This document shows, piece by piece, positions 13,971-51,847 of a stretch of DNA of 64,000 bases (positions are counted from its first letter, which is position 1; every line of letters starts with the position of its first letter). The stretch comes from an uncultured Verrucomicrobiae bacterium (GTDB lineage: Bacteria > Verrucomicrobiota > Verrucomicrobiia > Chthoniobacterales > Chthoniobacteraceae): the NCBI GenBank assembly GCA_963836755.1, contig CAWIKF010000002.1:1248001-1312000 (forward strand), in the 5' to 3' direction. The notes under the pieces were generated by a model. That model searched no databases. It was not told the origin of the DNA and was given only the letters and a program-made list of their open reading frames with translations. Both the position numbers and the translations under genes were made by a program.

Positions 13971-13985
13971 GGGAGGGGGATTATC

Positions 13986-14100
13986 CGGACGGCCCGGACG
14001 GGGTCATCGGACTCAATTTGAAAGTTGAGATGAGTTTTATATAGCCTTTCAAGGATTCAGAATTTTCAAATGACTTTAAATGTGCCGTCCGGTGCGTCCG
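13986..14100. repeat. CGGAC origin-like unit 1 (likely replication origin)
   Basis: CGGACGGCCCGGACG, AT-rich core, CGTCCGGTGCGTCCG; immediately downstream of the replication genes. Confidence 0.75.
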
Positions 14101-14374
14101 TAGCAGAGGGTAAATACTCGTAGAGTTTGCTATCGCCCCAATTTCATAAAATCCCAATGGAGGTCGGGTTTTATTCAAAAAATGCCTAAATTTCGCGCCC
14201 GGAGCGTTTTTATAAAACCTCTTTGCCTCTCTTGCTGGGCTAATTTGCCGATGATTACCACCGTGTGCGCTCCAACCTCGACAAACTGTGAATTCTTGGG
14301 ACAACCAGCCGTGCGGATGAATAAGCCTTTCTGCTGAGACAAACTGCACGTCTTGCGAGGATAGCCACCCATAA

Positions 14375-15454
14375 ATGTTCACCATTCAGCGCGACGCCCT
14401 TACATTTACCTTCCCGGAAATCGCCGGGCAGGTGCGCTCGCTTGTCGAGCGCAAGATTGAAGAATTCGCTTCTGCGCTCCCTCCTCGTTCCGAGCGAAAC
14501 AAGCTCATAGAGGAAATTGAATCCAACGAGCGATTCAGCAAACTAAGCCTTTCGCAAAGGGAACGCGCGAGCGCGATGTTGCGCACATGGACGCCTGAGG
14601 ACGTGGCAGCGGGTTTGCGGAGAACGATACTGGAACTCGGCGGCTTGAACACGGATGCGTTCACTGAGTTGACCGTCAAATTCCAGCGCACCATGCGAAT
14701 TCCAGACGGCGGCCAGACCTATTCCCTAGCGACGAATTTAGGCCAGCTTCCACTTCGCTCCGTGGATGCTTGTTCCAAGACCGCGCTGCCTTCGTGGATC
14801 AAGAAGGAGAGCGTTGTCCTGCCCTTGCACCGCAGCGAGGCACTCTGGCTTTGGTTCTCCTCGCGCTATCGCTTCGCGGTAAAAATCGGCGTCGGGAAGC
14901 TCGATGCGTTGACTGGCGAACCTTGGAACTCAACCCTGCACCGGCAACCGCAAAACTATCTCGTGGTTCCCGAGCCGTGGTGGAGTGAGAGCGATGAAGT
15001 CCTTTGGCACTATCTCGCGCTGCCGCTCGGCGTTGGCGACAGCGCGATTCGCTTGCAGGTCACTCCGATGTCCGCTGAATCCTATTATGACAACGAATTT
15101 TTGATCCGCACGCCGCGATCGATCCACGAGTTTTTCTCCAGCATTATCTTTGGAGGAATGATTCTCGCGCAGATGGAGCCGGGCCAACGCGAGCACGAGC
15201 GGTTCGAACTGGAATTCATGGAAGACAAGATACAGGCCGCGCTCTATCAATCCGTTCCTCAGAAAATTCCGGAGGACTCCTATGACTTCACGGCAAGGGG
15301 TCAAACGCAAAACGTCCACGGCATCGTTCACCCTTGCGATTCATCGGCTTGGAGACAAATCACCGGTACGAACCCGCCTCATCCGCCACTGACAGCCGAT
15401 GACTACCGGCAGGCAGGCATTCCGTGGGTTGAGAGCTACCGTGCAAGTGTGTGA
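14375..15454 (+). CDS. Hypothetical protein, possibly degenerate
   Basis: 359-aa ORF with a FQRTMRIPDG...SEALWLWF block recalled from an uncharacterised family. Confidence 0.55.
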   Translation: MFTIQRDALTFTFPEIAGQVRSLVERKIEEFASALPPRSERNKLIEEIESNERFSKLSLSQRERASAMLRTWTPEDVAAGLRRTILELGGLNTDAFTELTVKFQRTMRIPDGGQTYSLATNLGQLPLRSVDACSKTALPSWIKKESVVLPLHRSEALWLWFSSRYRFAVKIGVGKLDALTGEPWNSTLHRQPQNYLVVPEPWWSESDEVLWHYLALPLGVGDSAIRLQVTPMSAESYYDNEFLIRTPRSIHEFFSSIIFGGMILAQMEPGQREHERFELEFMEDKIQAALYQSVPQKIPEDSYDFTARGQTQNVHGIVHPCDSSAWRQITGTNPPHPPLTADDYRQAGIPWVESYRASV

Positions 15455-15601
15455 ATAGAATGATTCGAACGACGAATCGCGTGCGTAAACGAAATGAATC
15501 GGATTCAAACAGACGTCGCCGAGGAAATTGTTGCAAGATGAAGCTTGGACAAAGCATCTCCCTCAACACGACGTTTTCGTGCGCAAAAAAGTAAGGCATT
15601 T

Positions 15602-16462
15602 ATGATTACACAAAACTCACAGACGAGAGATTTAACGAGCATGGATAACATTGACGCCAATAAAATTCAGCCGATGCCCAAGGAGATTCATGAGCGACTA
15701 AACGAACATGGGGTCTATTTCAAAAAACGTGTGCTTCACGAACTGCGAAGCTATCAAGGTCTATCTATCGCGGGCGAGGAGGTCGGCGAATCATTCGGTA
15801 AAACCCGCGTGGCTGACATCCTCGCGTTCGACAAACGGAGCGACAGCCACACCCTCTACTTTGTAATTGAGTGCAAACGTGTCGCGAGTGAAAAGGTTTG
15901 GATTTTCTTTCGCGATATCGACAATACTTACAGAGCTTCTCGCGTGTCTAACATCGCCGGTCCATCAAGCGTCGTGCAAACTAGCGATCGGCTGCAGCTA
16001 GAACCTCCTGTATGCTCCGAAGGATATGAGTATCCAGTTGGCAGAAACAAAGTTGCCGACCAAGATCCCATTTTTCAGGCTGCAAGTCAGTTGTCAGGAG
16101 CTTTCTTAGGCTTTATAGCGCGGAGACAACGGATATGGCAACCCAACGCAGTAGAGCGTTTCGTCCCTCTTTTGGTGACGACGGCCAAATTATTCGCGGT
16201 AAATCAATCCGATCTTTCCAAGACGGATCTTCTATCTGGAAAGCTGAACTCAAGACCGCATTGCCTTGAGACTCCATTTGTTATTCTTAAACATCCTTTC
16301 CCGACACCGGAAGGCTTGGCCAAGGATTTTCGCGACGAGATCCAAGGAGAATCGTGGACTGCCATGCATCGCGAGACCATTTATGTCATAGGTGCCAGTG
16401 GCCTAAGAGAGTTCTTTGAGATTAGTCACCGCGATTTCCTTCACGACGCACGTAATGAATAG
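15602..16462 (+). CDS. Putative PD-(D/E)xK nuclease
   Basis: ADILAF...FVIECKR motif. Confidence 0.6.
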   Translation: MITQNSQTRDLTSMDNIDANKIQPMPKEIHERLNEHGVYFKKRVLHELRSYQGLSIAGEEVGESFGKTRVADILAFDKRSDSHTLYFVIECKRVASEKVWIFFRDIDNTYRASRVSNIAGPSSVVQTSDRLQLEPPVCSEGYEYPVGRNKVADQDPIFQAASQLSGAFLGFIARRQRIWQPNAVERFVPLLVTTAKLFAVNQSDLSKTDLLSGKLNSRPHCLETPFVILKHPFPTPEGLAKDFRDEIQGESWTAMHRETIYVIGASGLREFFEISHRDFLHDARNE

Positions 16463-16477
16463 ACTTCGATTGTTGCT

Positions 16478-17290
16478 ATGGAACCGGATCAAGAGCATTC
16501 TCTAGTTCTCAGACAGTCGCACGAGTTGATCGCGCTTGCATCTGCACCGAATCGTATCTTGTGCGAGATGGTAGCAAGTTCACTCGTGCTCGCAAAAGAG
16601 ACTGCCCCCCCTAATGTCGATCTCGACGCGCTTGTGCGTGAAGGAAAGCAAATCCAGGGAGGCAAAGGAATGACACCGGGAAATGTTCAGGCATTCAAGC
16701 TGTTTCACCAAGCTGCATGTGCCGGACACCCGGAGGCCCAGTTTCTTCTTTCCCAATACCATCTGTTCGAGATGGGGATTAAACTCGAAAAGGCTGAGTA
16801 TGAATACTGGTTGCAAAAATCTGCTGAGTCGGGCTTTGCACCAGCGCAAAACCGTTTTGGTTTTGAAACGAGCGCGCGAGACCATGTTGAAGCCGTTAAG
16901 TGGTATAGAATGGCTGCTGAACAGAATTATGCCAAAGGTCAACTCAATCTTGGTGACAGTTATCGTTATGGCTATGGAGTAGAGGAAGATTTGATCGAGG
17001 CTGTAAAGTGGTATCGAAAGGCAGCCGAACAGGGTAATGCTTGGTCACAATTCCTCTTGGGGGATTGCTATAAGGAAGGCGTAGGTGTTCCAAAAGATCA
17101 GGGTGAAGCCGTGAGGTGGTGGACAAAATCGGCGGAACAAGGTGAGGATAGGGCGCAAGCTGATCTTGGCGATTGTTATGCTTACGGTAACGGTGTGCCA
17201 CTAGACCTTGAGAAAGCTGTGAGTTGGTGGAGAAAGGCTGCGGAACAAGGAGCTAGTCAGGTTTATTACAAAGTCGGCAATTCATATTCT
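16478..17290 (+). pseudogene. SEL1-like repeat protein, 3'-truncated
   Basis: Repeated EAVKWYRKAAEQG; runs into unrelated GC-rich sequence at ~17290. Confidence 0.75.
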
Positions 17291-17303
17291 ATCGGCTGCG
17301 GCG

Positions 17304-17819
17304 ATGGCCGCGAAGAAGGCATTGACCGGCGAGGAAGAAGCCGAGCTGGCGGCGCTGTGGAAGCGGCTGGTGAAGCTGTATCATCCCGACCGTTTTGCGA
17401 ACGAGCCGGACAAGCTGGCGACCTACGGCAAGCTGACCGCCGCGATCAACCGGGCGAAGGACAGCGGCGACCTCGACACGTTGCGGCAGATTGCCAGCGA
17501 TCCGCACGGGTTCATTTTGCGGCAAGGCTGGGCGAGCCTCGATTTCCGCGACGAGGAGCAGGTGAGCCGGCTGCGGAAGCTGTGGGAGAGTTTGGAACTG
17601 GAAATCGTCATCGTGATCGAGGCGACGAGCCGGCTGCGCGAGAGCGCGGAGTTTGAATTGCACGCGCTGGTCGAGAAGAAGTCGGAGATGTTTGAAAGCG
17701 TGGTGGCGAAGCAGACCGAAAGACTGGACACAGAAATCGCGAAGCTGAGAGGCGAGGCGGCGGAACTGGCGAAGGAGATCGAGACGGTGGCCGGCCACCC
17801 AGCGGCGGACTTTCACTGA
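17304..17819 (+). pseudogene. J-domain (HPD) protein C-terminal fragment
   Basis: LWKRLVKLYHPDRF plus coiled coil; no RBS; abrupt GC shift at the 5' junction. Confidence 0.6.
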
Positions 17820-17954
17820 CCACTACACGCACTCATATCATTCTCGGCTGGTTTTTCACCACGCTCTGGTTCAGCGCGATTTCAGGACTGATGAAGGGAT
17901 GAATAGACTGGCGCCACTCCTGCTGGCCCGGAGATGGAGATATGGATTCGCCTG

Positions 17955-18075
17955 CGGACGCCCCGGACGCCTGTTTTTGAGTCTGGTTGAAAAGTGGATC
18001 TAGCATAGACTTCTTTGAATGTCACTGGACTCCCAAGGAGTTGAATATAGCCGTCCGCAGCGTCCGTAACGTCCG
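17955..18075. repeat. CGGAC origin-like unit 2
   Basis: CGGACGCCCCGGACG ... CGTCCGCAGCGTCCGTAACGTCCG (extra third repeat). Confidence 0.85.
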
Positions 18076-18220
18076 TGCACGGCCGATTGGAACGATCAAG
18101 CGATGGAGGAGGCGGCGATAGAATTTGTACTCAAGGTCGACAAAACAAAGAAGGACGACGTGTGGCGTCGTCCTATCTTTTGCTGCCCCTGAAATCATTA
18201 AGAGGGCAATTTTAGAAGTG

Positions 18221-18538
18221 TTAAGCTGCTTCTTTCAGCAAGTCGGTTACATTTCCCCAATCTTCGATTCGAACGACGAGGAAACGCTTTACATATCGAC
18301 AAAACCTGGGGGCAAGTTTAACCAGTTTGGCTGGTAACCGCATAATGGTCTCGAAGGAATGCTCGTTATCCTCGGTCGAATACATCGAGTGTTGAAGGTG
18401 CTTCTTCAACCCACAGGCTTCCAAAGCCTTTGGTAGCTCACGTTGATAAATGGAATTTCGCTGACTTTCATCAAGTCCTTCTCTTTCCATGAGCTTTGTA
18501 TCAAGATCAAAGCATATTGCATATTGTGGCATTTTCAT
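18221..18538 (-). CDS. vapD: VapD-like (Cas2-fold) endoribonuclease
   Basis: YAICFDLDT and LQHSMY motifs; GGAG RBS. Confidence 0.7.
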   Translation of the reverse strand: MKMPQYAICFDLDTKLMEREGLDESQRNSIYQRELPKALEACGLKKHLQHSMYSTEDNEHSFETIMRLPAKLVKLAPRFCRYVKRFLVVRIEDWGNVTDLLKEAA

Positions 18539-19096
18539 TAGGTCTCCTTTCTAACTCCCGATTAATATCGGGATCTTAGAAGACTATCAAAAATGACGTG
18601 CAACTACAAGCTTAAACTTCATAAGTCTTAAGGTTTTTTTACTCGCAGTAGGAAATGAAGTTTCCTATACTAAGAGTTACGTGCAATGGGTAGGCTTCTC
18701 ACAATAGCGAAAACCGAAATCGTCGGTGCGATTTTAACGGAAACTCAATGTACTATGTCACAGTTCCAAATCTGCCGAGCTTTCAAAGTACCGACATTCA
18801 ATGCGCAACACTCCGGAGCAAAAGGCAAAGCGATGGAAAAGTCGGGAGAAATTACCGTTGCGCAATTTTTATAAAGTTGCTTGAAGTTCCGCGAGCCCCG
18901 ATTAAGAAAATCCGGCCTCCCCGAGCCTCGGCGCCACCCATTATAGAATCGCGAAAAAGTCCCATACCTCCGCCGGAATTTAGCTTGACCACCGCGGCCG
19001 CATTCCATAACACCGCGGCATGACGGCGTGGAAACTACCAGGTGCGGCAACCAAAATACAACCAGAAACAGGCGAAACTTTTTTCGCCTTATATTA

Positions 19097-19123
19097 CGAA
19101 CTTTCGTCTAATTCTCGTTAGGT
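19097..19123 (+). other. attI-like site heading cassette array 1
   Basis: CGAACTTTCGTCTAATTCTCGTTAGGT; GTTAGGT is the complement of ACCTAAC in the next attC; no upstream attC hairpin. Confidence 0.5.
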
Positions 19124-19131
19124 CTTTCTCC

Positions 19132-19461
19132 ATGTCGCGCTTAGAGGACACCATGAACTTTCTTACAGATCAAGAGTGGGGCTGGTGCCCGTTTCTCTTC
19201 CTCCGGCCGCGCAAGGATCAGGACATAGACAACGCCGTCCTTCTAAAGATGGCGTGTTGCTTCGGTCCTGTCGCAGGCTTGGTTGCGTTGTTGCCCCTGT
19301 TCCTGTTTCGCCATGGCGTCACTGCTCGCGAAGTGATCTTGTGTCTCGTCGGCGCTTCGATTCTATTCTTTTTAGCCTACAAGTGGACCTTCGCTATCTT
19401 CTGGAATCGCCGCGCCGAGCGGCTTCGCTCATCGAACGCGCAGCCCGCCTCGGAGACCTAA
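19132..19461 (+). CDS. Cassette membrane protein
   Basis: Two TM segments; stop codon lies within the TAAC box of the attC. Confidence 0.7.
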   Translation: MSRLEDTMNFLTDQEWGWCPFLFLRPRKDQDIDNAVLLKMACCFGPVAGLVALLPLFLFRHGVTAREVILCLVGASILFFLAYKWTFAIFWNRRAERLRSSNAQPASET

Positions 19462-19580
19462 CCAGGCGATGCAGCGAACCGCTGGCCGCTCCGCGTTTTA
19501 GCTTGCGATGACTTCCACATTCAACCTGCAGCCACACGCGGCCTCGCCAGCGGTCGCTGATCTTGTGTCTCGTTAGGCGC

Positions 19581-20030
19581 ATGAGAACGCACCGCGTAAT
19601 TCACGGTTTGGCGATTCTGTCGCTCATAGTCGTCGCTGCCATGAGCGTCATCGGCAGCCTGCGTCAGTTTCCCGGAGCACCGCCCGAGATGAGATTCGCG
19701 CCACTCGTCGGCCTCGCTATTTGGTCGTTCCTGCTCTGGAAGATTTGGCGACGTCCTCGCAAATGGGGTCTCGGAGTCGGCATCTTCCTCTTTCTGATGA
19801 TCGCCTTCCAGAGCTACCTTTGGTGGCTTGGCGTCAACAATCCCAAGCTAGAGGCACAGATACCAGAAGCCAGCCGAAGCGTTGCCAACTTCATTCTGAT
19901 TTATGAGCTTCCGATCTTCGTTGCTGGTGTGTGCTGCATTTTGCTACGCTTTTCCAATCCACATGAGTCCTTTGACCACGCAGCGAAATGCGCCCGACCC
20001 TGCGATGCAGCTAACAGGCTCCGCCTGTAG
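19581..20030 (+). CDS. Cassette membrane protein
   Basis: About four TM segments; starts 3 nt after GTTAGGC. Confidence 0.65.
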   Translation: MRTHRVIHGLAILSLIVVAAMSVIGSLRQFPGAPPEMRFAPLVGLAIWSFLLWKIWRRPRKWGLGVGIFLFLMIAFQSYLWWLGVNNPKLEAQIPEASRSVANFILIYELPIFVAGVCCILLRFSNPHESFDHAAKCARPCDAANRLRL

Positions 20031-20059
20031 CTGATCTTGTTCTCGTTAGGGCCAAAACC

Positions 20060-20272
20060 ATGAAACCAAAAACGAAAGCAACAATATTACTGGCAATAGG
20101 ACTAGCTCTACAAAATGCAGGCATCATAACTGTTCCGCTGCATCTGTCGCAAAATGTGAAAACAGTTTTGATCTTGATAAGCATACCATTTTTTATATGG
20201 AGCATAGTGTTGTTTACCCGCAAGAAGCCCACGCCCGAGAACAAATCAATCCCACTAGAAATACCAAAATGA
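20060..20272 (+). CDS. Cassette small membrane protein
   Basis: 70 aa, two hydrophobic segments, bracketed by GTTAGGG and CCCTAAC. Confidence 0.6.
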   Translation: MKPKTKATILLAIGLALQNAGIITVPLHLSQNVKTVLILISIPFFIWSIVLFTRKKPTPENKSIPLEIPK

Positions 20273-20774
20273 AGCGATGTGATTTAAATAGCCCTAACCA
20301 AGCGATGCAGCTAACAGGCTCCGCCTGTAGCTGATCTTGTTCTCGTTAGACGAGTATGCGACGCGAAGACGAAAGTCACATTGTAGCCGATGGCCAGTCG
20401 CGCATCGTCGCTGGTTATGCTGCTCGGCTCCGCGCCCGTTTGCTTCGGCGCGCGGCTCCGCTACTTGAGCGTGGCAATCCCCTGCAGCGGATGGCGATTC
20501 GCTATCGGATGTCTCGTTTTGTTCGCGCTCAGATTCGCCGCCGGCGTCGAAAGTTGGCTCCGTTCGAAGCACTGTATGCATTGCCTAGTCAGTAGCCGCT
20601 TGTTTCGGGAGTTTCACGTGAGGCCACGCCAAACGTCTAACCATGCGATGGAGCCAACCACTGGCCGGCGTACGCGCAAGTTTTCCGTGAGTCCAACCCC
20701 ACATCCCGCCGCCACGCGCGCTCTCGCCAGTGGTGGCTGATCTTGTTCTCGTTAGGCTCCTTCCGCGCACTTCG

Positions 20775-21311
20775 ATGAAAGGCATTCAAGAACTCACCCT
20801 GAGAGTGTGCGTGACCGCCCTTTTCCTGTTTCCGGCGTTGTCTTTCGCTTATGCCCGCCCCAGACCAATCGCTGCTCGAATCATCAATATCCGTGGAGAG
20901 ACTCAACCCGAAGATGCAGTCGGCAATGTTGAGGTTACGCTCTCAAACCACCGCAAAGAGATATGGACTCGTAGCTGGCATTGCGAGCTTGCTAAAGTCT
21001 CCAAGACTAGGCTGGTAGGTTGGACTTACGCATCGGGCCAGCATACACGCGGCCCGTGGATGAACGATGAGTTGTGCATCGCGAACAGCAGGCACGACGT
21101 AACCCACTTTTCTGTTGATCGTGCGTTTATTGACCTTTGGGATTTTACCGATCACGATACTTGCGTCGTAATACGTTCACGGAACATTCATGGTCCTTCG
21201 TGGCTCGAGAAGTTTCGGATCGACACCGGCCAGTTCATCGATGAGTGTTCGGGCAGCAACTATCCTGAGAAGACCCCAGAATGGGCAAGACCATATCTCG
21301 ATGAACAATAG
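20775..21311 (+). CDS. Cassette secreted hypothetical protein
   Basis: Signal peptide; bracketed by GTTAGGCTCC and GGAGCCTAAC. Confidence 0.65.
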   Translation: MKGIQELTLRVCVTALFLFPALSFAYARPRPIAARIINIRGETQPEDAVGNVEVTLSNHRKEIWTRSWHCELAKVSKTRLVGWTYASGQHTRGPWMNDELCIANSRHDVTHFSVDRAFIDLWDFTDHDTCVVIRSRNIHGPSWLEKFRIDTGQFIDECSGSNYPEKTPEWARPYLDEQ

Positions 21312-21490
21312 CCAGGAGCCTAACCATGTGATGCAGCTAACAGACTCCACCTGTAGCTAATCTTTTTCTTGTTAGATGCAGAATACGAGTATGAACGAAG
21401 TTGCTAAACCACCGTCAGCGCACCGGTGCTGCTTTTGATTTACCGCGTTAATTCTTGACTTCGCACCGTCGTGATTTCAAAATCAACATT

Positions 21491-21850
21491 ATGAAACGCT
21501 CCCTCCTTACAACACTCGCTCTTCTTCCATGTTTTGCGTTAGCCGCGACAAGTCCCACCTCCATACCCCCTGATGTAGCTCATGAGCTTTCGGTGATGAC
21601 GACCAAGCTGAAGCTGAGTGAGAGTCAGCAAGACAGGATCAGGCCGATACTTGTGGCGGAATTTAACAAGAAGCAAGCGATAGAGAACAGCACGCTCAGC
21701 GACAGGCAGAAACATGATCAGGTTGGGTCGAATCACAGGGCGGCGTTGCAAAAGATTAAGGCATTGTTTACGCCCGAACAACTGGCGCTGATAGAAGAGG
21801 ATCAGAATCATCCATCTACAAGTTCGACAAGGCCGAAATCGAGAGATTAG
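21491..21850 (+). CDS. Secreted helical protein (Spy/LTXXQ-like)
   Basis: Signal peptide; LKLSESQQ and FTPEQ motifs. Confidence 0.55.
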   Translation: MKRSLLTTLALLPCFALAATSPTSIPPDVAHELSVMTTKLKLSESQQDRIRPILVAEFNKKQAIENSTLSDRQKHDQVGSNHRAALQKIKALFTPEQLALIEEDQNHPSTSSTRPKSRD

Positions 21851-22098
21851 TTAATGAAAACAAAACATATTGGGTGAGTTGTTGCGGCTGCCTATTGCGC
21901 TACGCGGCGGATGCGCTTGCATTCTATCATGTTTTCCAGAGCCAATCGACTGATCAATCATACCGGTTTATTCTTTCAAGGATTTGTCCTTTGCCTCAGT
22001 TTCCTGTCGCAATGCAATCGCTGCTAGTTGGGCTAAGTCTAGCGATAGGAGGCAGAGACTTTAGGGGAGGAGAGGGGCGATTGTCGCCGCTTTAAACA

Positions 22099-22211
22099 CG
22101 GACGCCACGTACACCATTTAGAGACTCACTTTGGGGATATCGAACGATGACGCGCTGCTCTTTCCTCTCAGAATCCTGAATTGAGTGCAACACTGCCGTC
22201 CGCAGCGTCCG
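22099..22211. repeat. CGGAC origin-like unit 3
   Basis: CGGACGCCACGTACA ... CGTCCGCAGCGTCCG. Confidence 0.8.
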
Positions 22212-22534
22212 CGATTACCTTTCCTAGGGCATTGTCCTTGTGCTGGCACTTCTCGCGGGCGTGCTCGGCTCTTGGTCTTTCCAGAGTATTCGTCCCTTCG
22301 ACTTTTACCACGAAGCCGATGGTGGTATGCCGGGATGGGAGCCCGTTATGATGTATTCTAAAACTACGATCCAGTGTTGTATCATTGCACTTGTTTCGGT
22401 ATTCGGCAGCGCACTTGCGTGCTACTTTATTACTCGACATGCTGAACCCCGCACAACGGACTAACCATGCTATGCAAGTAAATCGATCCCGCCTGTAGCT
22501 GAGCTTGTATCTCCTTAGGCTGTTGCACTATACC

Positions 22535-22954
22535 ATGAAACCTATTTTTCTCTTCAGCCTGCTCCCACTCATTTGCGCTGCCGCGTTGCCGCAGCAGGAC
22601 TTTATTGGTTCACGCATCACTGAGTTTGAACGTGTCTCTTACGATTTCCAACTTACGAAAACGGCTCTGCAGAAAGCACCTGTATGGAGCCCGGAAGCTC
22701 CATTTCCTCCGCTATCGCCTAGGAAAGCGCAGGAGATCGCTACGGCGCAGCTCCAAGAGTTGCTTCCCGATCAGCATCGGTGGATGCGCATTTCTAGGAT
22801 CACGCTGGAGGAGCTTGACGGTTCGCATTGGATTTACCTAGTGACATTTGATTATGTTCCGCCGACTCCGTATTCAGGACCAGCTCGGTTGTTCACGATT
22901 CCAGTTTATCTCGACGGTTTCATCATAACACCGCACATTCGCAAGCAAACATAA
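22535..22954 (+). CDS. Cassette secreted hypothetical protein
   Basis: Signal peptide; lies between two attC sites. Confidence 0.65.
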   Translation: MKPIFLFSLLPLICAAALPQQDFIGSRITEFERVSYDFQLTKTALQKAPVWSPEAPFPPLSPRKAQEIATAQLQELLPDQHRWMRISRITLEELDGSHWIYLVTFDYVPPTPYSGPARLFTIPVYLDGFIITPHIRKQT

Positions 22955-23035
22955 TGAGGCTAACCATGCGATGCAGCTAAGAGGCTCCGCCTGTAGCTGC
23001 ATCTTGTTCTCGTTAGCTACCCTGCACATCCAACC

Positions 23036-23353
23036 ATGAAATTCAGCCTATTCTTACCATTTGCAGCGGTCACACTCCTATGCGCCGGCTGTAACCATTC
23101 GGATCGCGACGATGATGTGTTGTTTATTGGCTACCGTTATGCCAAAGACAGCCATGCCTACGTTTCTGCCAACGCAACGAAATATATGGGCGATGGTTAT
23201 GCCACGTCGCTGAACGCCAGTCCCCATGTGAGGATTTGGGGTTCCATGTGCAGCCTGACTTGGGTCGAAACCGAGAGTGACGGGAGCAAAAGGACAAAAC
23301 ATGTCAGCTTCCCTGTATCGAACATCGACGAGATTGTTTGGAAGGGCGACTAG
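23036..23353 (+). CDS. Cassette lipoprotein
   Basis: Lipobox-like CAGC; lies between attC sites. Confidence 0.6.
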   Translation: MKFSLFLPFAAVTLLCAGCNHSDRDDDVLFIGYRYAKDSHAYVSANATKYMGDGYATSLNASPHVRIWGSMCSLTWVETESDGSKRTKHVSFPVSNIDEIVWKGD

Positions 23354-23479
23354 TTCGCTCGGCCGTATCACCCAGCCTAAAAGGCGCTCCAGCGAACCGA
23401 GGCTGGCGATGGGCTTTTTCTTGTATTCCAAGTCTTCTCGCGCCAGCCTCTGTCGCTGAGCTTGAGTCCGTTAGGCTCC

Positions 23480-23839: not shown

Positions 23840-23982
23840 CAAGTCGCTGAAGCCAACCGCAGTTGGTACTTGCAGTTCCGCTGTCGCGGTTCACGTTAGG
23901 TGTTGCCGGCCGCTCACCAATCGACAACAACCGAAGCAAACTAGCTGATCTTCAGCAGATGCGTCTCGACAATCGCACTTCC

Positions 23983-24284: not shown

Positions 24285-24425
24285 CACCCAATCCCACCTC
24301 TCCCGCGAACAGCGGCTCAGAGTCAGGTCTTTCCTGTTTGGAATCCTTGACCTGGCCTGCCTCTGTCGCTGGACTTCGGTCGGTGATGCGGCATTCGGAC
24401 CCTCCAAACAAATCTGATCCCGCCG

Positions 24426-39647: not shown

Positions 39648-39676
39648 CATTCCAAAAAGAAAGGAGCCACACGCTC

Positions 39677-42413: not shown

Positions 42414-42557
42414 TGCTGCTCGATGAAAATCACCGAAGACGTCCGCAAATACGCCGCCGAGCAAGGCCTCCCCGAAGATGAAGCTTTGCAAAAAGGACTC
42501 GCCGAAAAGTCTGCCGAGTTCGTGGAAAAAGGCGCGGAGGTTTACGCCAAGGCATAA
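42414..42557 (+). pseudogene. thiC: 3'-terminal fragment of thiC
   Basis: [46 protein letters not shown] resembles the ThiC C-terminus. Confidence 0.8.
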
Positions 42558-42588
42558 TTACAACAAAAACCTAATCACTCACTTCACA

Positions 42589-43731
42589 ATGGCTCATCGA
42601 GAAAAGCTATCACCCGCCGAGATTGAGAAACGTTATGACTCTGGGCAGAACCGTCTGACACAAGAGCGGAGCGACTTTCTGCTTCCTCAAATCATTGACT
42701 TTGTTCAGCAGAAAAAATGGCTCAATCTTAGGCCGGAATATCAGCGCCGACTGGTGTGGGATCGTAAAAAGAAGTCTTTATTCATCGAGTCCCTATTGAT
42801 GAACATCCCAGTGCCACCTGTATTTTTGTATGAGACCGATTTAAGTCGGTATGAGGTCATGGATGGACAGCAACGACTAAATACCATTTTGGAATTTTAT
42901 GGTAACCAACTGAAGTTAACTGGCCTCGACACTTGGTCGCCACTCAACGGGCTAACCTATTTAAAATGCCCACCTCGGATAAAGAGTGGGCTGGACCGAC
43001 GGCGCATTTCGGCAAATGTGCTTCTTGCAGAGAGCGCATCGACGCCCGCGGAGGTCAACTTCATCAGACGAACCGTTTTTGAACGCCTAAATACAGGCGG
43101 ACAGCAACTGAACGCTCAAGAACTTCGGAATTCCCTATACTCGGGACCCTTCAATGATCTGATCATTGAACTGGCTGGAAATCGCTTGTTTGATCAAATT
43201 TGGGAAATCCCGCCCTATGAAGATCATTATCGAAAAGAGGAAGGCTATATAAGCCCCGAACTCGCTGAGAATAAGCTGTTCAAACGGATGACTGATTGCG
43301 AAATCGTCCTCCGCTTTTTTACATTTCGAAATAGTTCTTCGATCAAGGGATCGGTTAGGTCAATGCTGGATAGCTGCATGGATGAGAAACGTGAAGCTGA
43401 CAAGTCGCAGATCGACGAATTGAGAACAGCTTTCACGGAAAGCCTTGAGACGGCGCACAAAATCTTCGGCGCACGCACATTTCAAGTTCGTGACCCGAAG
43501 GGTAGCTGGAAGCTTTCCCAGCCACTGTTTGACGCAGTAATGGTCGCTACAAACATTCTAATAGCGAAAAAGGACAGCTTGATTCTGAATCGCAGTAAGC
43601 TCTCGAAAGATTTGCATGATGTCCTCGCTGTGCCCGAGACCTATGACATTGTGGTGGGTAAGCCCAATACGGCTATTGCAATCCGTCAGCGGCTTTCAAT
43701 CGTTGGTGATATTTTCAAAAAGCATTCTTAA
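42589..43731 (+). CDS. DUF262 (GmrS-like) protein
   Basis: PEYQRRLVW, DGQQRL and FERLNTGG motifs. Confidence 0.9.
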   Translation: MAHREKLSPAEIEKRYDSGQNRLTQERSDFLLPQIIDFVQQKKWLNLRPEYQRRLVWDRKKKSLFIESLLMNIPVPPVFLYETDLSRYEVMDGQQRLNTILEFYGNQLKLTGLDTWSPLNGLTYLKCPPRIKSGLDRRRISANVLLAESASTPAEVNFIRRTVFERLNTGGQQLNAQELRNSLYSGPFNDLIIELAGNRLFDQIWEIPPYEDHYRKEEGYISPELAENKLFKRMTDCEIVLRFFTFRNSSSIKGSVRSMLDSCMDEKREADKSQIDELRTAFTESLETAHKIFGARTFQVRDPKGSWKLSQPLFDAVMVATNILIAKKDSLILNRSKLSKDLHDVLAVPETYDIVVGKPNTAIAIRQRLSIVGDIFKKHS

Positions 43732-44513
43732 TGGCTGCAGCGTTTGCAGACGCTGGGCTTAAAGAGTTTGGCTTGGCTTTAGACGAACTGGCTGAGGACC
43801 TAGAGTTCTTGCGTTTGTCTTCGAGGCTTCGCCCACGCTTGGGAGCCTTGCTAAATTGGCAGGCTGTCGATGGCGATGCAGCCCAACTCGCAAAGGGTTT
43901 CATGAACCTCAAAACGGTAGAGCTTTCTCCGCTTTACCGAGGAATGATCGCAGTTCTTTCCGGAACCTTCGAGCAATTGGTTAGGCGGGTGGTTCAAGAA
44001 GCGGTGCTACAGATCAACAATGATGTAGATGTCTTCGATAAACTGCCGGACGGGATCAAAGTTCATAATTTATTCTTCAGTGGTCGCGCACTTTGTGCAG
44101 TTCGCGAACCTCCTGATCACGTAACGATCGATCATTACTTGCTCGTCCGTTCGTTGGCAACTTGCACACCCGGAGCGCAGAAATTCGTATTAAACGCCGA
44201 TGCTTTCGCCATGTTCATCACCAATCTTACTCCCTCACACCTTGGGGACATCTGTCACTCGATTGGTGTTTCGTTGAATTGGGACTACTTTGGAAAAGTA
44301 AACGCTTTTGAAAAACTGTTCGGATCGAAGGGAGCACGCTCATTGGGGAAGATGGTTTCCGATCGACTTGCGGATATAGTCAAATTGAGAAATCGCATAG
44401 CTCATACCGGCGCCGGCGGGGTTACGGTATCGGAGGAGGACGTCGCGTCACATATCGCGTTCCTAAGAATCCTTGGGCTAAGCTTTTCCGCTTTTATCGA
44501 GGCCGAACTCTAG
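43731..44513 (+). CDS. HEPN-family putative RNase
   Basis: RNRIAH (Rx4H) motif; coupled to the DUF262 gene. Confidence 0.75.
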   Translation: MAAAFADAGLKEFGLALDELAEDLEFLRLSSRLRPRLGALLNWQAVDGDAAQLAKGFMNLKTVELSPLYRGMIAVLSGTFEQLVRRVVQEAVLQINNDVDVFDKLPDGIKVHNLFFSGRALCAVREPPDHVTIDHYLLVRSLATCTPGAQKFVLNADAFAMFITNLTPSHLGDICHSIGVSLNWDYFGKVNAFEKLFGSKGARSLGKMVSDRLADIVKLRNRIAHTGAGGVTVSEEDVASHIAFLRILGLSFSAFIEAEL

Positions 44514-44516
44514 CAC

Positions 44517-44621
44517 GTGAACACCCCATTCATCCACCCCGCCGTCCGCATCGGGCATGTGCATTTGAAGGTGGCGGATTTGGAGTTGGCGATTAGGTTT
44601 TATCGGGATCCTGAACCATAA
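44517..44621 (+). pseudogene. 5' fragment of a VOC/glyoxalase gene
   Basis: IHPAVRIGHVHLKVADLELAIRFY, then stop. Confidence 0.65.
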
Positions 44622-44655
44622 CGCTAGCCCTACTTCTGGATTTCCGCAGCCGCTC

Positions 44656-47600
44656 ATGCCTTCCCCAAAACAAACGATCCACACCATTCTCGACCAATTT
44701 CGCGAGGAAACCACCTCCAATCGCGAACTTGGTGACCGTTTCGAGCGTCTGATCTGCCGCTACCTCGAACTCGACCCGATGTATGTAGATCGCTTCTCCA
44801 GCGTATGGATGTGGAATGAGTTCCCAAAAAAAGGAAACGTCGGAGATGTGGGCATAGATATCGTGGCGGAGGAACGCGCGACCGGAGAATACTGTGCCAT
44901 CCAGTGCAAGTTCTACTGCCTGATCACACGCTCTCGAAGGGCGAATTGGATTCCTACTTCACTGCATTGGGAAATCCCCTGTTCACCAATGGCATGATTG
45001 TCTCCACGACGGATCAATGGGGATCGAATGCGGAGCACGCGGCGGCTCATCAAACAAAACAAGTTTCTCGGCTGCGCGTCCAAGACCTCGACGAAAGTCC
45101 GGTGGACTGGGCGAAGTTCGATCTCAAGCGCCCGACAGACCTCGGTCTCCGCGCCCGTAAAAAGCCAAGGCCACATCAAGACGAAGCGATTAAGGATGTG
45201 CTCGCGGGCCTTGTCATTGCCGACCGTGGCAAACTCATTATGGCTTGCGGCACGGGCAAGACGTTCACGTCACTTTGCATCGCGAAAAACTCGCGCCGAA
45301 AGGCCATATCCTTTTTCTCGTGCCGTCGCTCTCCCTGCTGTCACAGAGCTTGCGCGAATGGACTGCGGAATCCACTCGCCCGCTCCACAGCCTTGCCGTG
45401 TGCTCAGATGCGAATATTGGCAAGAAACATACAAAGACCGATGACGATAGCGCGGACATCACCACGATAGACCTGGCGTTTCCTGCTACGACCTCCGCAA
45501 AGCAGATCGTCCGTCAGTATGAGGCAGTGCAGAGCATGGCGGAGAAAAAGAAGACCCCTCCCCAGATGACAGCGGTCTTCTCCACCTATCAATCTATCGC
45601 CGCTGTTTCCGAGGCCCAAAAGGCAGGGCTACCGGACTTCGATCTCATCATCTGCGACGAAGCGCACCGCACCACGGGCGTCACGATTAGCGGCGAGGAC
45701 GAGAGCCATTTCGTGAAAGTCCACGATGCCGCCTATATTCGTGGAAAGAAGCGTCTCTACATGACGGCCACGCCGCGCATCTATGGCGATCAAGCCAAAT
45801 TGAAGGCGCAGGAAGCGGATGCCAAACTCTGCGACATGGACGATGAGGCGATGTTTGGCCAGCAACTCCACCGTCTCGGCTTCGGCGAAGCCGTCGGTAA
45901 AGAACTGCTTTCCGACTACAAGGTGCTCGTCCTCGCCGTGGACTCGGGCTACGTCTCCAAGGCGTTCCTCACCGGCGCGACGAAAGAGATACCGCTTGAG
46001 GATGCCGCCAAGATTACCGGTTGCTGGAATGGCCTCGCCAAACATCTCGACAAAGCGGCCTCTGCCGAGGGTGGCGACACCGCTGTAGATTTGCATGGCG
46101 ATAACGCGCCCATGCGCCGTGCTGTAGCCTTTTCCCGCTCCATTAAAGACTCGAAAGCCTTCACACAGCAATTTGCCCAGATCATCGACGCCTATCGCGC
46201 CTTGCACCCGGAAAAAGATAACATCCTCCGTTGTGAGCTGGATCATGTGGACGGCACCTTTGGTGCGCTCGCACGCAATGCCCGTCTGGACTGGCTCAAA
46301 GCCGACGCCGGGGAGAATACTTGTCGTATCCTTTCAAATGCCCGCTGCCTTTCTGAAGGTGTAGATGTTCCCGCGCTGGATGCGGTGCTCTTCCTCAATC
46401 CACGTAACTCTGTCATTGATGTCGTCCAGTCCGTTGGGCGCGTCATGCGTCGGGCCGAGGGAAAAAAATACGGTTACATCCTTCTTCCTATTGTTATCCC
46501 GCCGGATGTTACGCCTGAAGAGGCGCTGAAGGACAACGAACGCTACAAAGTCGTTTGGCAAGTCCTCCAAGCACTCCGCGCCCATGACGACCGCTTCAAT
46601 GCCACCGTCAACCAGATCGAGCTAAATAAAAAACGGCCCGCCAACATCCAGGTCATCGGCGTCGGCGACCCGCTGCCGAGCCTCGAAACCCACGGCGACA
46701 GCAAACCCAAAACACAGGAGACGCAGGGCACTTTTGTCTTTCCCCACTTGGAAGATTGGAAAGATGCCATCTATGCCAAGATCGTTCTTAAATGCGGAGA
46801 TCGCCGTTATTGGGAAAGCTGGGCCAAGGATGTCGCTATCATCGCCGAGCGCCACGCCACCCGCATACGGGCATTGCTCGAAAGCGGCGAGCCTCGCCAC
46901 AAATCCGCCTTTGCCGATTTCCTCGCGGGTCTTCGCCAAAATCTCAATCCTAGCATCTCTTCCGATGACGCCATTGAAATGCTTTCCCAGCACCTGATCA
47001 CGCGCCCGGTCTTCGACGCGCTTTTTGCGAACTACGAATTTACAAAGCACAACCCCGTCTCCCTGGCCATGCAGACCATGCTTGATACCTTGCATGATCA
47101 AGACTTGGAGACGGAGGTCGGGAAGCTGGAGAAATTCTATGACAGCGTCCGCGCCCGTGCTTCAAAGATAGATAACGCCGAGGCCAGACAGCGCATCGTC
47201 ATAGAACTCTATGACAAGTTCTTTAGCACCGCTTTCCCAAAAGTGAAGGAGCGCCTCGGCATCGTCTATACCCCGGTCGAGGTCGTGGACTTCATCATCC
47301 ACAGCGTCAGCGACGCCCTCCAGAGCGAGTTCGGTTCTGCGCTCGGGGACAAGGATGTCCACATCATAGACCCCTTCACCGGCACCGGCACCTTCATCGT
47401 CCGCCTTCTGCAAAGCGGCCTCATCCCCGCCGCCGACCTCCTGCGCAAATACCAGCACGAGCTGCACGCCAACGAAATCATCCTCCTCGCCTACTACATC
47501 GCCGCTATCAATATCGAGGAGACCTTCCACGGCCTCATGCGCGAGCGCGCTGCGAAGTATCCCGGCAAAAAGCCTGCCGACGCCACCAAGGCGGACAGCT

Positions 47601-49582
47601 ACATCCCCTTCGAGGGCATCGTCCTCACCGACACCTTCCAGCTCTCGGAGACAAAGGGAGAGATGGAGGAAAAAATGTTCCCCGAGAACAACCGCCGCGT
47701 GAAGCGCCAACGGCAAAGCCCCATCCGTGTCGTCACCGGCAACCCGCCCTACTCAGCCCAGCAAGAAAGCGAGAGCGACAACAACAAGAATCTTGCCTAC
47801 CCGAGCTTGGACGCTCGCATTGCCGCGACCTACGCCGAACGCTCCAATTCCAAACTGGCGAAGAACAACTACGACTCCTATATTCGCGCTCTCCGTTGGG
47901 CCAGCGACCGCATCGAGGCAAAAGGCATCGTCGCCTTCGTAACGAGTAGTTCCTTCATCTCGAAGAACAACATGGACGGCATCCGTGCCAGCTTGGTTGA
48001 TGAGTTCAGCGCCATTTACATCTTCAATCTTCGAGGTGACGCGCGGACGCAGGGCGAACAGCGACGCATGGAAAAGGGTAACGTGTTTGGCGGAGGGAGC
48101 CGCTCTGGGATCGCCATATCGCTCCTCATCAAGAACCCCGAGAAGGTAGGGAAATGCGAACTCTACTACCACGACATCGGCGACTATCTCAGCCAAGAGG
48201 AGAAGCTCGCTCTCATCCGCAACACCCAAAGCGTCAACGGTATTCACCGAGAGAAAAAGTGGTTGCGCATCCAGCCCAACGCGAGCCATGACTGGCTCAA
48301 TCAGCGAGACCCGATTTTCAGCACATTCTTACCGCTTGGCGATAAAGACGATAAAAGCACGAAAACCGTGTTTTCTACTTACTCGCTCGGTGTAGTGACC
48401 AACCGCGACACTTGGGCCTACAACACGTCGCGGGCAGCGGTTGAAGCAAACATCCAACGACTGATAGAAGCCTACAACTCAGAGCGTGCGCGTTACCGTG
48501 ATGCTTGCATCGGCAAAGGCAAAGACGAGATACCAGAAATCGAGAGCATCATCGATTCGGATCTAAAACGTATTAGCTGGACCAGGGCGCTTAAGGCGGA
48601 CGCCAAGCGCGGTAAACCCTTGGAGTTTGAAAGCCAATCGCTCACCACGAGCATGTATCGCCCGTTCGTGAAGCAATGGCTTTATTTCAACCGCCGCCTC
48701 AATGAGATGGTTTACCAGATGCCGAAACTCTTCCCCTCTGCGGCACACAGCAATATCGTCTTATCCGCGATGGGAAGCGGCGCAACGAAGGACTTCTCGG
48801 TTCTCGCGACGAGCACCTTGCCCGACCTCGAAATGATTGCGAAAGGCCAGTGCTTCTCACTTTACGTCTATGAGAAGGACGCGCCGCAAGAGGGTGAACT
48901 TATCGGCAAGCAGCAGGAGGGCGAGCTGGTGGACGGCTACCGGCGGAGGAGCGCCATCACGGATGCGATCCTCGCGGATTTCCGCAAGGCGTATGAGGCG
49001 AAGGTCACGAAGGAGGACATCTTTTACTACGTGTATGGCGTGCTGCATTCGCCGGAGTATCGGGCGCGCTTTGCCAGCGACCTGAAGAAGATGCTGCCGC
49101 GCATCCCCTACACCCGGGAGGTGGCGGACTTCTGGAAGTTCAGCAAGTCAGGCCGCGACCTCGCCGAGTGGCATTTGAATTACGAAACCGTCGAGCCGTG
49201 GCCGATCCAGGAACATTCCAACTCTTTGTCACTCGACCCCGCAAAAGACTACCTCGTGCAGCCGAAGATGAACTTTGGCCGCAAGGACAAGCAGGTGGAC
49301 AAGACGGCCATCATCTACAACAACCGCCTCACCCTCACCGGCATCCCGCTTTCCGCCTACGACTACGTGGTGAACGGCAAGCCCGCCATCGAGTGGATCA
49401 TGGAGCGTTACCAAGTGACCGTGGACAAGGACAGCGGCATCCGCAACGACCCGAACGATTGGGCGCGCGAACACCAACAGCCGCGCTACATCGTCGATTT
49501 ACTTAAGCGGTTGGTGCGGGTGAGCATGGAGACGATGAAGATCGTGAATGACTTGCCAGCGATCAACGAGCGAATTAAATGA
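44656..49582 (+). pseudogene. Type ISP restriction-modification enzyme (LlaGI/LlaBIII-like) with two frameshifts
   Basis: IDIV...AIQCK nuclease; ACGTGKT and DEAH helicase; DPFTGTGTF and NPPY methyltransferase; frame breaks near 44916 and 45285. Confidence 0.85.
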
Positions 49583-49720
49583 GTAAAGGTTATCTTCCCA
49601 GTAAGCGCAATGGTTGGAGCGGCGGCGTGTGCCAATTTCAATCGCGCCTCCAGAATCTGCCCCTCCGCCAGTCCATCCTCCAAAAAGCCTTCGGCAGCGC
49701 CTAAGAATTCCGGAAATCTA

Positions 49721-50152
49721 ATGAAATCAACTCCAGCAACTCACGCACTTGAAAAACTTGCCCGTTCCTACAGCGAGCGACATCTGGCTGTGAACGCAGA
49801 GTATCAACGGGGAGCCGCTTGGAACGTCCGCCAGCAAAGAGCTCTTATAGATTCGATTCTTCGTGGATTTGTTTTACCGATCTTCTATGTCCACGTAGTC
49901 AAAACGCCAAACCTTTTCACTGGTTTCGAAACGGTAACCGCTTGGCTTGTAGATGGTCAACAGCGGCTAAACGCAATCACTGAGTATATGCGTGGACGCT
50001 TCGCCCTAAATGATCCCAGTCTTGGAACGACAGGTTTAGCAATGGCCTACGAGCGGCTAAATCCGCCCCGATGGGCGGGCAAGCGTTTCGAGGACCTTGA
50101 AGAGTTGACATTATTGTTGTTCCTGAAAATGACCGACAGCCAGGGTGTGTAA
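49721..50152 (+). pseudogene. Truncated DUF262 protein
   Basis: EYQRG and DGQQRL motifs; ends early in an HsdM-like ELTLLLFLKM peptide. Confidence 0.65.
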
Positions 50153-50180
50153 AACTTTTTCTACCCTGACATCGTAAGTT

Positions 50181-50498
50181 ATGTGGCTCGCAACCAAACA
50201 CTGCTTTTACTCCATCGCCCATAAGCAAGCACCTGACGACGGAAAGCCAGCAGTTTACCATGTTCGTGCTCGTGTTCGCGGAGATTTGGAGAATCTGCTT
50301 AAAGCCACAGGGATGCTCCAAGAGATCCAGGAATGGCCGAAAGCTGATTACCGCTATCGGATTATCGTGAGCCAGCAGGAGGCGTTTGAGATCATGAACC
50401 ACCTAGCTGAGAGTTTGGATTACTCCAATTTCAAATCCAAATCGCCGCCACGGACGATCAAGGTGGGAAGCTCCACGCTTACCACGAAATCTGGGTAA
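50181..50498 (+). CDS. Hypothetical protein, probable C-terminal frameshift
   Basis: MWL...FYSI...VRAR...DYRYR...LDYSNFK. Confidence 0.55.
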   Translation: MWLATKHCFYSIAHKQAPDDGKPAVYHVRARVRGDLENLLKATGMLQEIQEWPKADYRYRIIVSQQEAFEIMNHLAESLDYSNFKSKSPPRTIKVGSSTLTTKSG

Positions 50499-50562
50499 TG
50501 GATAAACTGCAAATGCGGTGAAGGACAACCAACAACCCGAATTATTAACAACCTATTTGAGT

Positions 50563-51342
50563 TTATTCGATGCTGCGGATAAATCGCTTCAGATGGAATG
50601 CGGCAAGTGAAACGTCTGAATGAGGTATCGAAGAAGTTCGTCCTTTGAGTGCGGCTGCAATGTTTTTCGGGTTAAGAACCCACGCATCGCCCGACTTGGC
50701 TTTCTGCTCTACATACCATCCCGGATAAACCACGATAGGCCACACAGGAAAGTCCTTTCCGGTCGATGCCTTTAAAGTTTCCTTGATGAAGCGAGCATTG
50801 GCTTTTGCCTGGTCAATCGGATTAGGTTCCACCACTCGATCGTGAATCATAATCTCCTTGCCGTCGAAATAAACCCTCTCCTCCTGACCTCCCGACTTCG
50901 ATCTCGTTTTGGTTTCAACGACGTAAACTCCAGTAGCTCCAATCAGTACATGATCAATGTTGAAGTTTCCTCCAACGATATCATGCAAAACCTCATAGCC
51001 TTGTTTCCGCAACTCATCCAGATGCTCACCAATAATTCGCTCGCCATCTCTGCCTAACAGTAAATCTTGGCGTTCTTGCCACATTCTCCGGATTTTAGGA
51101 AAACAAAAACTGCAGACTGCTATCGCAATGAAGGTATAGGGGATTGGATGCGGGTTGTCCTTGCTATACCAACGCAACCACTCCGCCGCCATATTCCAGA
51201 GAATGAACAGGCAAAGTAGGCAAAGGCCCATAAGGTCCAACGAACGGCCGTAAAGTTCCGCTGTCAACGATTGCCCAGGGGCTCGTAAAGGCTTTTCCTT
51301 AAGCGGGGATCGAATCGCTGGCTTATTTCCGATATCCATCAC
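50563..51342 (-). CDS. NERD-domain nuclease with TM anchor
   Basis: GRDGE, NIDHVLIG, VVETK and PIDQA motifs. Confidence 0.8.
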   Translation of the reverse strand: MMDIGNKPAIRSPLKEKPLRAPGQSLTAELYGRSLDLMGLCLLCLFILWNMAAEWLRWYSKDNPHPIPYTFIAIAVCSFCFPKIRRMWQERQDLLLGRDGERIIGEHLDELRKQGYEVLHDIVGGNFNIDHVLIGATGVYVVETKTRSKSGGQEERVYFDGKEIMIHDRVVEPNPIDQAKANARFIKETLKASTGKDFPVWPIVVYPGWYVEQKAKSGDAWVLNPKNIAAALKGRTSSIPHSDVSLAAFHLKRFIRSIE

Positions 51343-51383
51343 TGTGCACGTTTAGCAACCGCGCAATCCTGTTTCCGTCCTAC

Positions 51384-51800
51384 TCACCTTCCCGCATAAG
51401 ATTCTGAATGCGACAGGTGCTTGTTCCAATTTGCTGTGTACTTCGCAATCAGGTCCGGCACGTTTTTCATGATGAGCAGGTTTTCAGCGTTACTATGCTC
51501 CGCCGCCTTGGTGAAATTAAACGAGCCAGTGATCAGCGTCTCCCCATCAATGATCATGATCTTGTTATGAGCTATGGCATGCTTGCCGTCAAGCCAGGTC
51601 GGGATTTTGGCATGAGCGACAAAATCAGCCGCAGCCGAATATTTGCCTGTTGTGTTGTCCTTTTTGTCCAGGATCACCTTCACATCGACCCCTCGCTTGT
51701 GGGCATCTACCAGAGCCTTGGCAATCTCGTCACTGGTGAAGGAATATGCTTGAACCAGCACCGTCTTCTTCGCCGCGTTTAGCTCGCGCACGATCGCATC
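51384..51800 (-). pseudogene. PLD-family (Nuc-like) nuclease, 5'-truncated
   Basis: AYSFT, HNKIMIID and TGSFNFT motifs; N-terminus replaced by the CGGAC half site. Confidence 0.75.
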
Positions 51801-51802
51801 TG

Positions 51803-51847
51803 TTTCTAAGGTAGTGAGTTTTACCCGTCCGGGCCGTCCGGGAATTA
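51803..51847. repeat. Terminal right-arm half site of the CGGAC unit
   Basis: CCCGTCCGGGCCGTCCGG (51824-51841) is the exact reverse complement of 13985-14002. Confidence 0.85.

Follow-up and report, generated by a model that had tools for sequence, protein, structure and literature searches.

The tRNA-Val island and its repeated units

The stretch of DNA analysed here, hereafter called the window, comprises 64,000 nucleotides from an uncultured Verrucomicrobiae bacterium (contig CAWIKF010000002.1, positions 1,248,001 to 1,312,000 of the forward strand), and it contains a 42.9-kb island integrated at a tRNA-Val(CAC) gene. This gene (9517-9588, reverse strand), identified by ARAGORN and the sole match in the Rfam scan, supplies by its 5' part the left attachment (att) repeat of 38 bp (9551-9588), and an exact copy of this part on the same strand forms the right repeat (52488-52525), the two bounding the island. 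Next to the tRNA gene are four genes on the forward strand, viz. those for a tyrosine integrase of 366 aa (9679-10779; PF00589, phrog_1), a 272-aa protein without known family (10776-11594), a primase-helicase of 675 aa of the Prim-Pol/D5_N/SF3 type (11676-13703) and an 88-aa Cys-rich, zinc-finger-like protein (ZnF; 13704-13970), which tblastn finds kept behind the primase in relatives. At the other end, and facing into the island, is a gene for a 62-aa xis-like HTH_17 protein (51886-52074, reverse strand; PF12728, phrog_66), an integrase with direct att repeats and a xis gene being all present in the island. The Pfam scan covered 60 open reading frames (ORFs) of the window and the PHROG scan 19 proteins. 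Neither gave a match for the 272-aa protein, which also shows no similarity to the ORF following xis in the related genome G800 (G and L numbers denote related genomes and primase loci, respectively; G000 is the genome under study, with contigs C1 and C2). ZnF has no Pfam match, and from a CxxC motif we infer that it binds zinc.

Behind ZnF begins the first of five repeated units. A complete unit consists of two inward-pointing arms, each of the form CGGACG-N3-CGGACG, and is 112-115 bp long. The five units in the window, viz. U1 (13986-14100), U2 (17955-18066, or to 18075 with one extra hexamer on its right), U3 (22099-22211), U4 (26976-27089) and U5 (35707-35818), are all oriented as direct repeats. 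Two further arms stand alone, one in the primase gene and one near xis, and the arm core is perfect in 11 of the 12 window arms, the left arm of U3 (U3L; L and R denote left and right arms) having two mismatches. U1 starts 286 bp after the last codon of the primase and has an 85-bp core.

The primase carries the Pfam domains Prim-Pol, D5_N and DUF5906, and the only PDB sequence match of its profile is PriRep5 of the Staphylococcus aureus pathogenicity island (SaPI) SaPI5 (7OLA, E 1.1e-18), which is also reached by Foldseek with the predicted model (7ola_B, E 1.2e-10). Residues 595-673 of this model are arranged as helix-strand-helix-helix-strand-strand (pLDDT ~84-94), resembling a winged helix; the 7OLA profile alignment reaches residue 762, the C-terminal domain being assessed within the whole-protein comparison only. 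The SaPI origin is described in PMC9371898 as an AT-rich region flanked to either side by two or more short iterons of opposite orientation, located just downstream of rep, the iterons being bound by the C-terminal winged helix. U1 matches this layout, with two plus two CGGACG hexamers around a core of 66% A+T, compared with 48% for the island. From this layout and the homology of the primase, the five units are likely to be the island's replication origins, and by analogy the island would work like a SaPI PriRep/ori replicon.

The resemblance to SaPIs and other phage-inducible chromosomal islands (PICIs) extends to a primase fused to an SF3 helicase, whose C-terminus is predicted to form a winged helix, to hexanucleotide iterons placed two per side of an A+T-rich core, opposed and downstream of the gene, and to a tyrosine integrase with att repeats. 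However, the island is 43 kb long rather than a compact element of ~15 kb, has the ZnF gene between rep and ori, carries, in place of a single ori, five units plus two lone arms, has a primase domain of the Prim-Pol (AEP) kind and resides in a host of Verrucomicrobiota type, judging from the names of homologues. Satellite phage P4 replicates with its alpha protein at ori1 together with crr, the latter made up of direct repeats, and psu, delta and sid are core genes of P4-like satellites. Going by the names of homologues, the primase-helicase is of the P4 family, and iterons here, like ori1 and crr in P4, are spread over several sites of the element, one of them inside the primase gene; however, the units are complete inverted origin-like structures and not direct repeats of the crr kind. 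Neither Pfam (60 ORFs) nor PHROGs (19 proteins) revealed packaging or capsid-hijack genes (small terminase, capsid size factors), several ORFs having no family; psu, delta and sid, or capsid redirection, gave no PHROG match among the 19 proteins, and relaxase, coupling protein and type IV secretion genes were not seen in the Pfam scan of the 60 ORFs. As these scans revealed no packaging, P4 core or conjugation genes, the island is not filed as a PICI, a P4 satellite or an integrative and conjugative element.

Cargo blocks and the xis-proximal end

Between U1 and U2 lies a cargo module (module A, 14375-17819, forward strand) with 359-aa, 305-aa, Sel1-repeat and 171-aa ORFs, which is partly shared with G800 and is there also followed by a unit. 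The Sel1-repeat ORF overlaps the 171-aa ORF in another frame (16478-17819), and it is the 171-aa protein that is conserved in G800 (68%), an arrangement that suggests a frameshift or fusion. Between U2 and U5 (19456-35700), cassette arrays contain about 15 attC-like repeats; similar repeats are present in many clusters of the genome, and no integron integrase is found in the window. Non-coding leaders at 18884-19125 and 29434-29666 recur at the heads of cassette arrays elsewhere in the genome (C2:1471432, C1:703479, C2:1340708, C2:1340844). U4 is preceded by an attC-like 5' half and followed by a flank, and this segment (26895-27195) is 83% identical over 302 bp to G000:C2:390684-390961, which belongs to a second island. 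U5 is joined to a shortened attC-like half (together 35676-35818) and ends ~30 bp from the leader of the next module. The left flank of U5 (35676-35706) resembles the attC-half flank of U4 (26895-26975) minus ~50 bp, deleted between two short similar stretches. A cassette gene at the right edge of U3 was considered as 5'-truncated and then dropped, as a GTG start could yield an intact 74-aa protein.

The module behind U5 (35959-42276, forward strand; Pfam) encodes a small ORF, a 175-aa ORF, a PD-(D/E)XK nuclease, a 195-aa ORF, a WGR-ligase, a clamp-like protein and a DUF932 protein, and is referred to below as the core module. It is followed by restriction- and defence-type cargo (42478-51342; Pfam), viz. 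GmrSD_N, HEPN, Type ISP restriction-modification, a GmrSD fragment and NERD; the Type ISP gene (44656-49582) seems to be in pieces, its Mrr-like nuclease part forming a separate short ORF before the 1445-aa ORF. Outside the island, the window has a tandem 42-bp coding repeat in ~9 copies (1639-2016) and a small reverse-strand cassette array with attC-like repeats (61160-62500).

The last gene before the xis side is a PLD-family nuclease gene lacking its first 50 codons (51384-51803, reverse strand), which is 98.8% identical over 420 bp to an intact gene at G000:C2:400998-401567. The intact copy lies in the second island, situated at tRNA-Leu(TAG) (G000:C2:368.5-419.7 kb, loci L240-L242), which has an att-like repeat near 368534 and an integrase, and no primase. 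This island also holds a U4-like unit minus one hexamer and a 2.5-kb, 76% identical copy of the rhamnosidase gene of the window (4449-6971). The PLD match, which runs from codon 51 to the stop of the intact gene, breaks off 22 bp inward of the xis-side lone arm (51824-51841, reverse strand), and between this arm and the xis stop there is a G+C-rich, terminator-like hairpin (51853-51880, reverse strand; read by eye), a similar one following xis in G800. A deletion or illegitimate join at the PLD breakpoint would have removed the start of the gene and any partner arm ~90 bp further in. The breakpoint accounts for the missing partner of this arm, and as such a junction is needed under every model, it will be incorrect to take the missing partner as evidence that U1L was once that partner.

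The 18-bp match, the lone arms and related islands

The first-pass annotation of this DNA had started from U1L, whose 18-bp sequence CCGGACGGCCCGGACGGG (13985-14002, forward strand) has its exact reverse complement not in U1R but beside xis, and had proposed that cargo split the single perfect-armed unit of an empty ~5-kb ancestor, so that 38 kb now sit inside one origin and the internal units may be hybrids of arms from adjacent modules. The match itself is real, the copy at 51824-51841, 45 bp past the stop of the xis-like gene, having no mismatches and U1R agreeing with the 18-mer at only 14 of 18 positions. A third match that the annotation did not contain (17/18) lies in the primase coding sequence (11796-11813, reverse strand). 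Three matches at no more than three mismatches compare with a shuffle mean of 0.05, and none of 100 shuffles reached three; however, this null is too lenient, since 12 of the 18 bases form the iteron core common to the window arms, leaving six bases as the informative match. Pairs of arms identical at 18/18 make up 1.1% of the 1,732 pairs between different related elements, and within the window U4L and U5L constitute a second perfect pair. Over 24 bp the xis-side arm agrees with the primase arm at 23 positions, as a direct repeat, compared with 20 for U1L. Inward of the 18-mer, it and U1L agree at 12/22 positions ungapped (shuffle z ~0), a similarity that does not clearly exceed that of U5R (13/22) or U1R (10/22).

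The arm in the 5' coding region of the primase gene, where it encodes VRDVR, has no partner within 75-200 bp, and the xis-side arm likewise has none. The primase-gene arm recurs at the same place in L133 and L170, a V-R-x-V-R motif being present at this position in 12 of 120 homologues (the window's primase included), and further lone arms are seen in the helicase 5' region of L130 and L133. Lone arms, which are common in relatives, belong to the normal layout of this family. In L130 (5229-9444) and L133 (5408-9027) genes for a second D5 helicase, a ParB-like protein and a radical-SAM protein lie upstream of the primase in these two genomes, and a pair of lone arms, facing inward at a distance of 2.3-2.6 kb from each other, brackets the block. 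A palindrome, GGTGG-N8-CCACC, occurs just outside some arms in the closer relatives L130, L133, L160, L167 and L258, and the same search found none beside the window arms.

By sequence, the window arms cluster by side, the right arms agreeing at 15-17 of 18 positions across the five units and the left arms of the cargo units at 14-18, while U1L, the primase arm and the xis-side arm make up one sequence class (17-18/18). Within-unit identities from U1 to U5 are 14, 14, 12, 15 and 13 of 18, compared with 15 (U1R/U2L), 13 (U2R/U3L), 14 (U3R/U4L) and 15 (U4R/U5L) for adjacent arms across modules; with a difference of less than one base, the anticipated better agreement across modules is not seen. 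Homology among U3, U4 (77% identical to U3) and the unit of the tRNA-Leu island extends over both halves (z 8-16; overall identity 73-83%), so that these units have moved whole, and the suggestion of hybrid internal units is in general not supported, although U5 may be a hybrid.

Units in relatives were examined at 65 distinct primase loci, of which 7 were too short and 58 were scored for a unit within 1.7 kb of the primase, using a matrix trained on part of the same loci; kin among them, including the near-duplicates L147, L153, L180 and L197, are not independent, and 8 viral loci, which had tandem arrays or were picked by pattern alone, were left out of the arm-identity statistics. A complete unit was found at 30 loci, only unpaired arms at threshold at 9 and none at 19; rechecking 8 of the 9 unpaired-arm loci (all except L184) revealed degenerate partners in 4, raising the complete units to 34. 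The left/right identity of the 30 intact units ranges from 12 to 18 of 18 (12 in 3 units, 13 in 3, 14 in 3, 15 in 10, 16 in 5, 17 in 4 and 18 in 2), and with only two of them perfect, a perfect-armed ancestral unit is not what the family suggests. In L130, L167 and L195, whose primases are 50-55% identical to that of the island, the unit begins 286-289 bp after the primase and its arms agree at 14, 13 and 12 of 18 positions, and since both position and imperfection are shared, U1 is to be regarded as an ordinary unit at the orthologous place.

The layout found in relatives is primase, ZnF, one or more intact but imperfect units and core module. Six other genomes have the 175-aa and PD-(D/E)XK genes, which head the block 36213-42276, in the neighbourhood of the primase. 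They keep the orientation and follow a single intact unit in G731 (gap 1.8 kb) and G572 (2.5 kb), two units in G115 and several arms in G734; in G533 and G806 they are inverted. As these genes are family core standing downstream of intact units, no empty ~5-kb ancestor is indicated, and at least 6 kb of the supposed cargo is family core normally outside the origin. No such ancestor was found, nor a minimal relative with a single unit between ZnF and xis: neither the primase nor xis gave anything in viral contigs, the integrase gave short contigs only, no match to the primase was obtained in G001 and G002, two genomes of the same genus, and the best primase homologue found is 58% identical. Five relatives bounded by att repeats span 20-50 kb. 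Three of these, G547 (22 kb), G572 (33 kb) and G258 (48 kb), contain a single intact unit, keep their cargo outside this unit and lack a distal arm; in G806 (50 kb) there are many arms and, ~360 bp from the distal att, a complete unit; G641 lacks a CGGACG unit.

The closest xis (69%) is that of G800, where the end of the island is built alike, with the tRNA 5' half, GGTTAC repeats, xis and the hairpin. Behind ZnF, G800 has a complete unit, and 1.8 kb downstream of xis there is a partnerless arm in the xis sense, none following the xis hairpin directly. A layout that would speak against the split-origin proposal, viz. a complete unit after ZnF and a separate half site near xis, is therefore seen in G800, if only loosely, this relative being non-minimal and its arm not directly beside xis. 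Its first unit is whole, whereas the second tandem unit, intact in L167, L160 and L133, is split into an L arm and an R arm sharing CAACTCCGGCTGG, which lie 5.5 kb apart around a homologue of module A. Cargo can thus enter inside a unit in this family.

Competing explanations and implications

It appears fairly probable to us that the 42.9-kb element at tRNA-Val carries five ~115-bp units likely serving as iteron origins for its own primase-helicase, that U1 is likely an ordinary intact origin, and that the xis-side arm is unpaired, cut by the PLD junction, and not likely the lost half of U1. By analogy with SaPI PriRep, the C-terminal winged helix would bind pairs of CGGACG and a hexamer would load on each side of the unit, whereupon the A+T-rich core would melt. 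The starting backbone would have been integrase, 272-aa ORF, primase, ZnF, unit, core module and xis. Behind ZnF and ahead of the core module, this backbone may have gained ~21.6 kb of cargo with its units, ~9 kb of restriction cargo being added after the core module. Cargo accumulated between U1 and U5 possibly by crossover inside origins, and its junctions fall at or within units, likely as a result of recombination between sites that are alike and are opened time and again. The likeness of U1L, the primase arm and the xis-side arm likely reflects their being the backbone's own high-affinity sites, kept alike by selection or gene conversion. Of the first-pass interpretation, the origin-like nature of the units and the accumulation of cargo between U1 and U5 (21.7 kb) are retained, whereas the enclosure of 38 kb in one origin is not. 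Several observations weigh against our explanation. The only 18/18 match of U1L is the xis-side arm, and U1R groups with the cargo right arms (15-16/18) and not with U1L (14/18); in relatives, arms of the same unit are somewhat more alike (mean 15.4) than arms of different elements (14.6); cargo is able to split a unit, as seen in G800; the CGGACG unit is absent from 19 of the 58 loci; and the relatives are distant, with primases at most 55% identical in the loci seen and no direct ancestor or empty form found. Contigs of three runs of one study showed no joints at a unit over 9000-28999, at a depth of only ~1-5 that makes the result uninformative.

If an ancestral unit was split here, U1L and U5R, 21.7 kb apart, are a better candidate for its halves than U1L and the xis-side arm. 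In this refinement of the explanation above, which is possible but which we would not presume, unit-bearing circles integrated by crossover in the spacer, leaving U1 and U5 as reciprocal hybrids. It would account for the fact that the position after ZnF and before the core module, filled by one unit in G731 and G572, is here divided between U1 at the first place and U5 at the second. Besides being identical to U4L, U5L shares the attC-derived flank of U4, whereas the right half of U5 is unlike U3R and its inner part is closest to the primase arm (15/22, z 3.6-4.6) and then to U1L (13/22); the direct-repeat orientation of all units and the G800 arms enclosing module A point the same way. However, the U5R core is of cargo type (17/18 to U2R), the z-scores are taken from a set of 91 pairwise comparisons, neither U3 nor U4 is a hybrid, and a join at the outer edges of complete units would explain the arrangement just as well. 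That U1L and the xis-side arm are the halves of one unit with all 38 kb inside, as first proposed, is improbable: the 18/18 inverted match, the cargo-type U1R, the junction inside the xis-side half unit and the existence of split units in G800 favour it, but it makes the core module cargo inside an origin, contrary to G731, G572 and G115, still requires a separate loss of the last left arm, finds no distinguishing similarity past 18 bp and a closer match in the primase arm, and lacks a minimal relative among the contigs and genomes searched. Further, a single origin opened by 38 kb would lose the two-sided layout conserved in SaPIs, unless a hybrid unit was re-formed at once.

The xis-side arm may instead be a functional single site or its remnant, i.e. 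an operator or a crr-like auxiliary site used with U1, perhaps descended from a lone arm like that at the start of the second helicase gene in G800 and G806; we regard this as a tentative idea with rather less than an even chance. Its near-identity (23/24) to the conserved lone arm of the primase gene and the same-sense lone arm 1.8 kb downstream of the otherwise equivalent att, GGTTAC repeat, xis and hairpin end of G800 are in agreement with it, whereas the gene breakpoint 22 bp inward of the arm points to truncation, the hairpin of G800 is not directly followed by an arm, and three att-bounded relatives have no distal arm. Finally, the units could be gene-less mobile inverted-repeat elements, resembling miniature inverted-repeat transposable elements, or recombination sites of the integrase, and not origins. 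The homology of U3 and U4 stops at the outer arm edges and one copy stands in an island without a primase, as this view would expect; however, in different phyla units are found at a constant position behind D5-type primases, 3.18 Mb of sequence contain a single copy outside the island, and no target duplications were noticed, without a systematic search, all of which makes it quite unlikely.

Integron cassettes, pdif modules and IS26 translocatable units are known tandem module arrays bounded by direct-repeat sites. The cargo blocks of the island are similarly parted by similar sites in one orientation, but these sites are origin-like, only 57-77% alike across the five units, and no recombinase has been identified for them. 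In the literature, as far as covered by open-access full text, no description of these units or of multi-origin islands was found. With the motif CGGACG-N3-CGGACG, an iteron can be defined for a group of Prim-Pol/D5 islands that is widespread and has a conserved lone site within the primase gene. In several of these islands origin-like units, from two to five or more in number, stand at the boundaries of cargo. As a speculative extension, in which we place limited confidence, the origin in the present Verrucomicrobiota family of primase-helicase islands may double as a docking site, where origin-bearing cargo, including integron-cassette arrays fused to an origin, would be added by crossover in the origin core. 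The island would then grow as an array of direct-repeat origins, each block being a gene-less mini-replicon open to copying in trans by the island's primase. U1 and U5 would represent the ancestral origin, parted into its two halves by 21.7 kb, and G800 an independent split. If the units are indeed capture sites or mini-replicons, they would offer these islands a route of gene acquisition without a dedicated recombinase.

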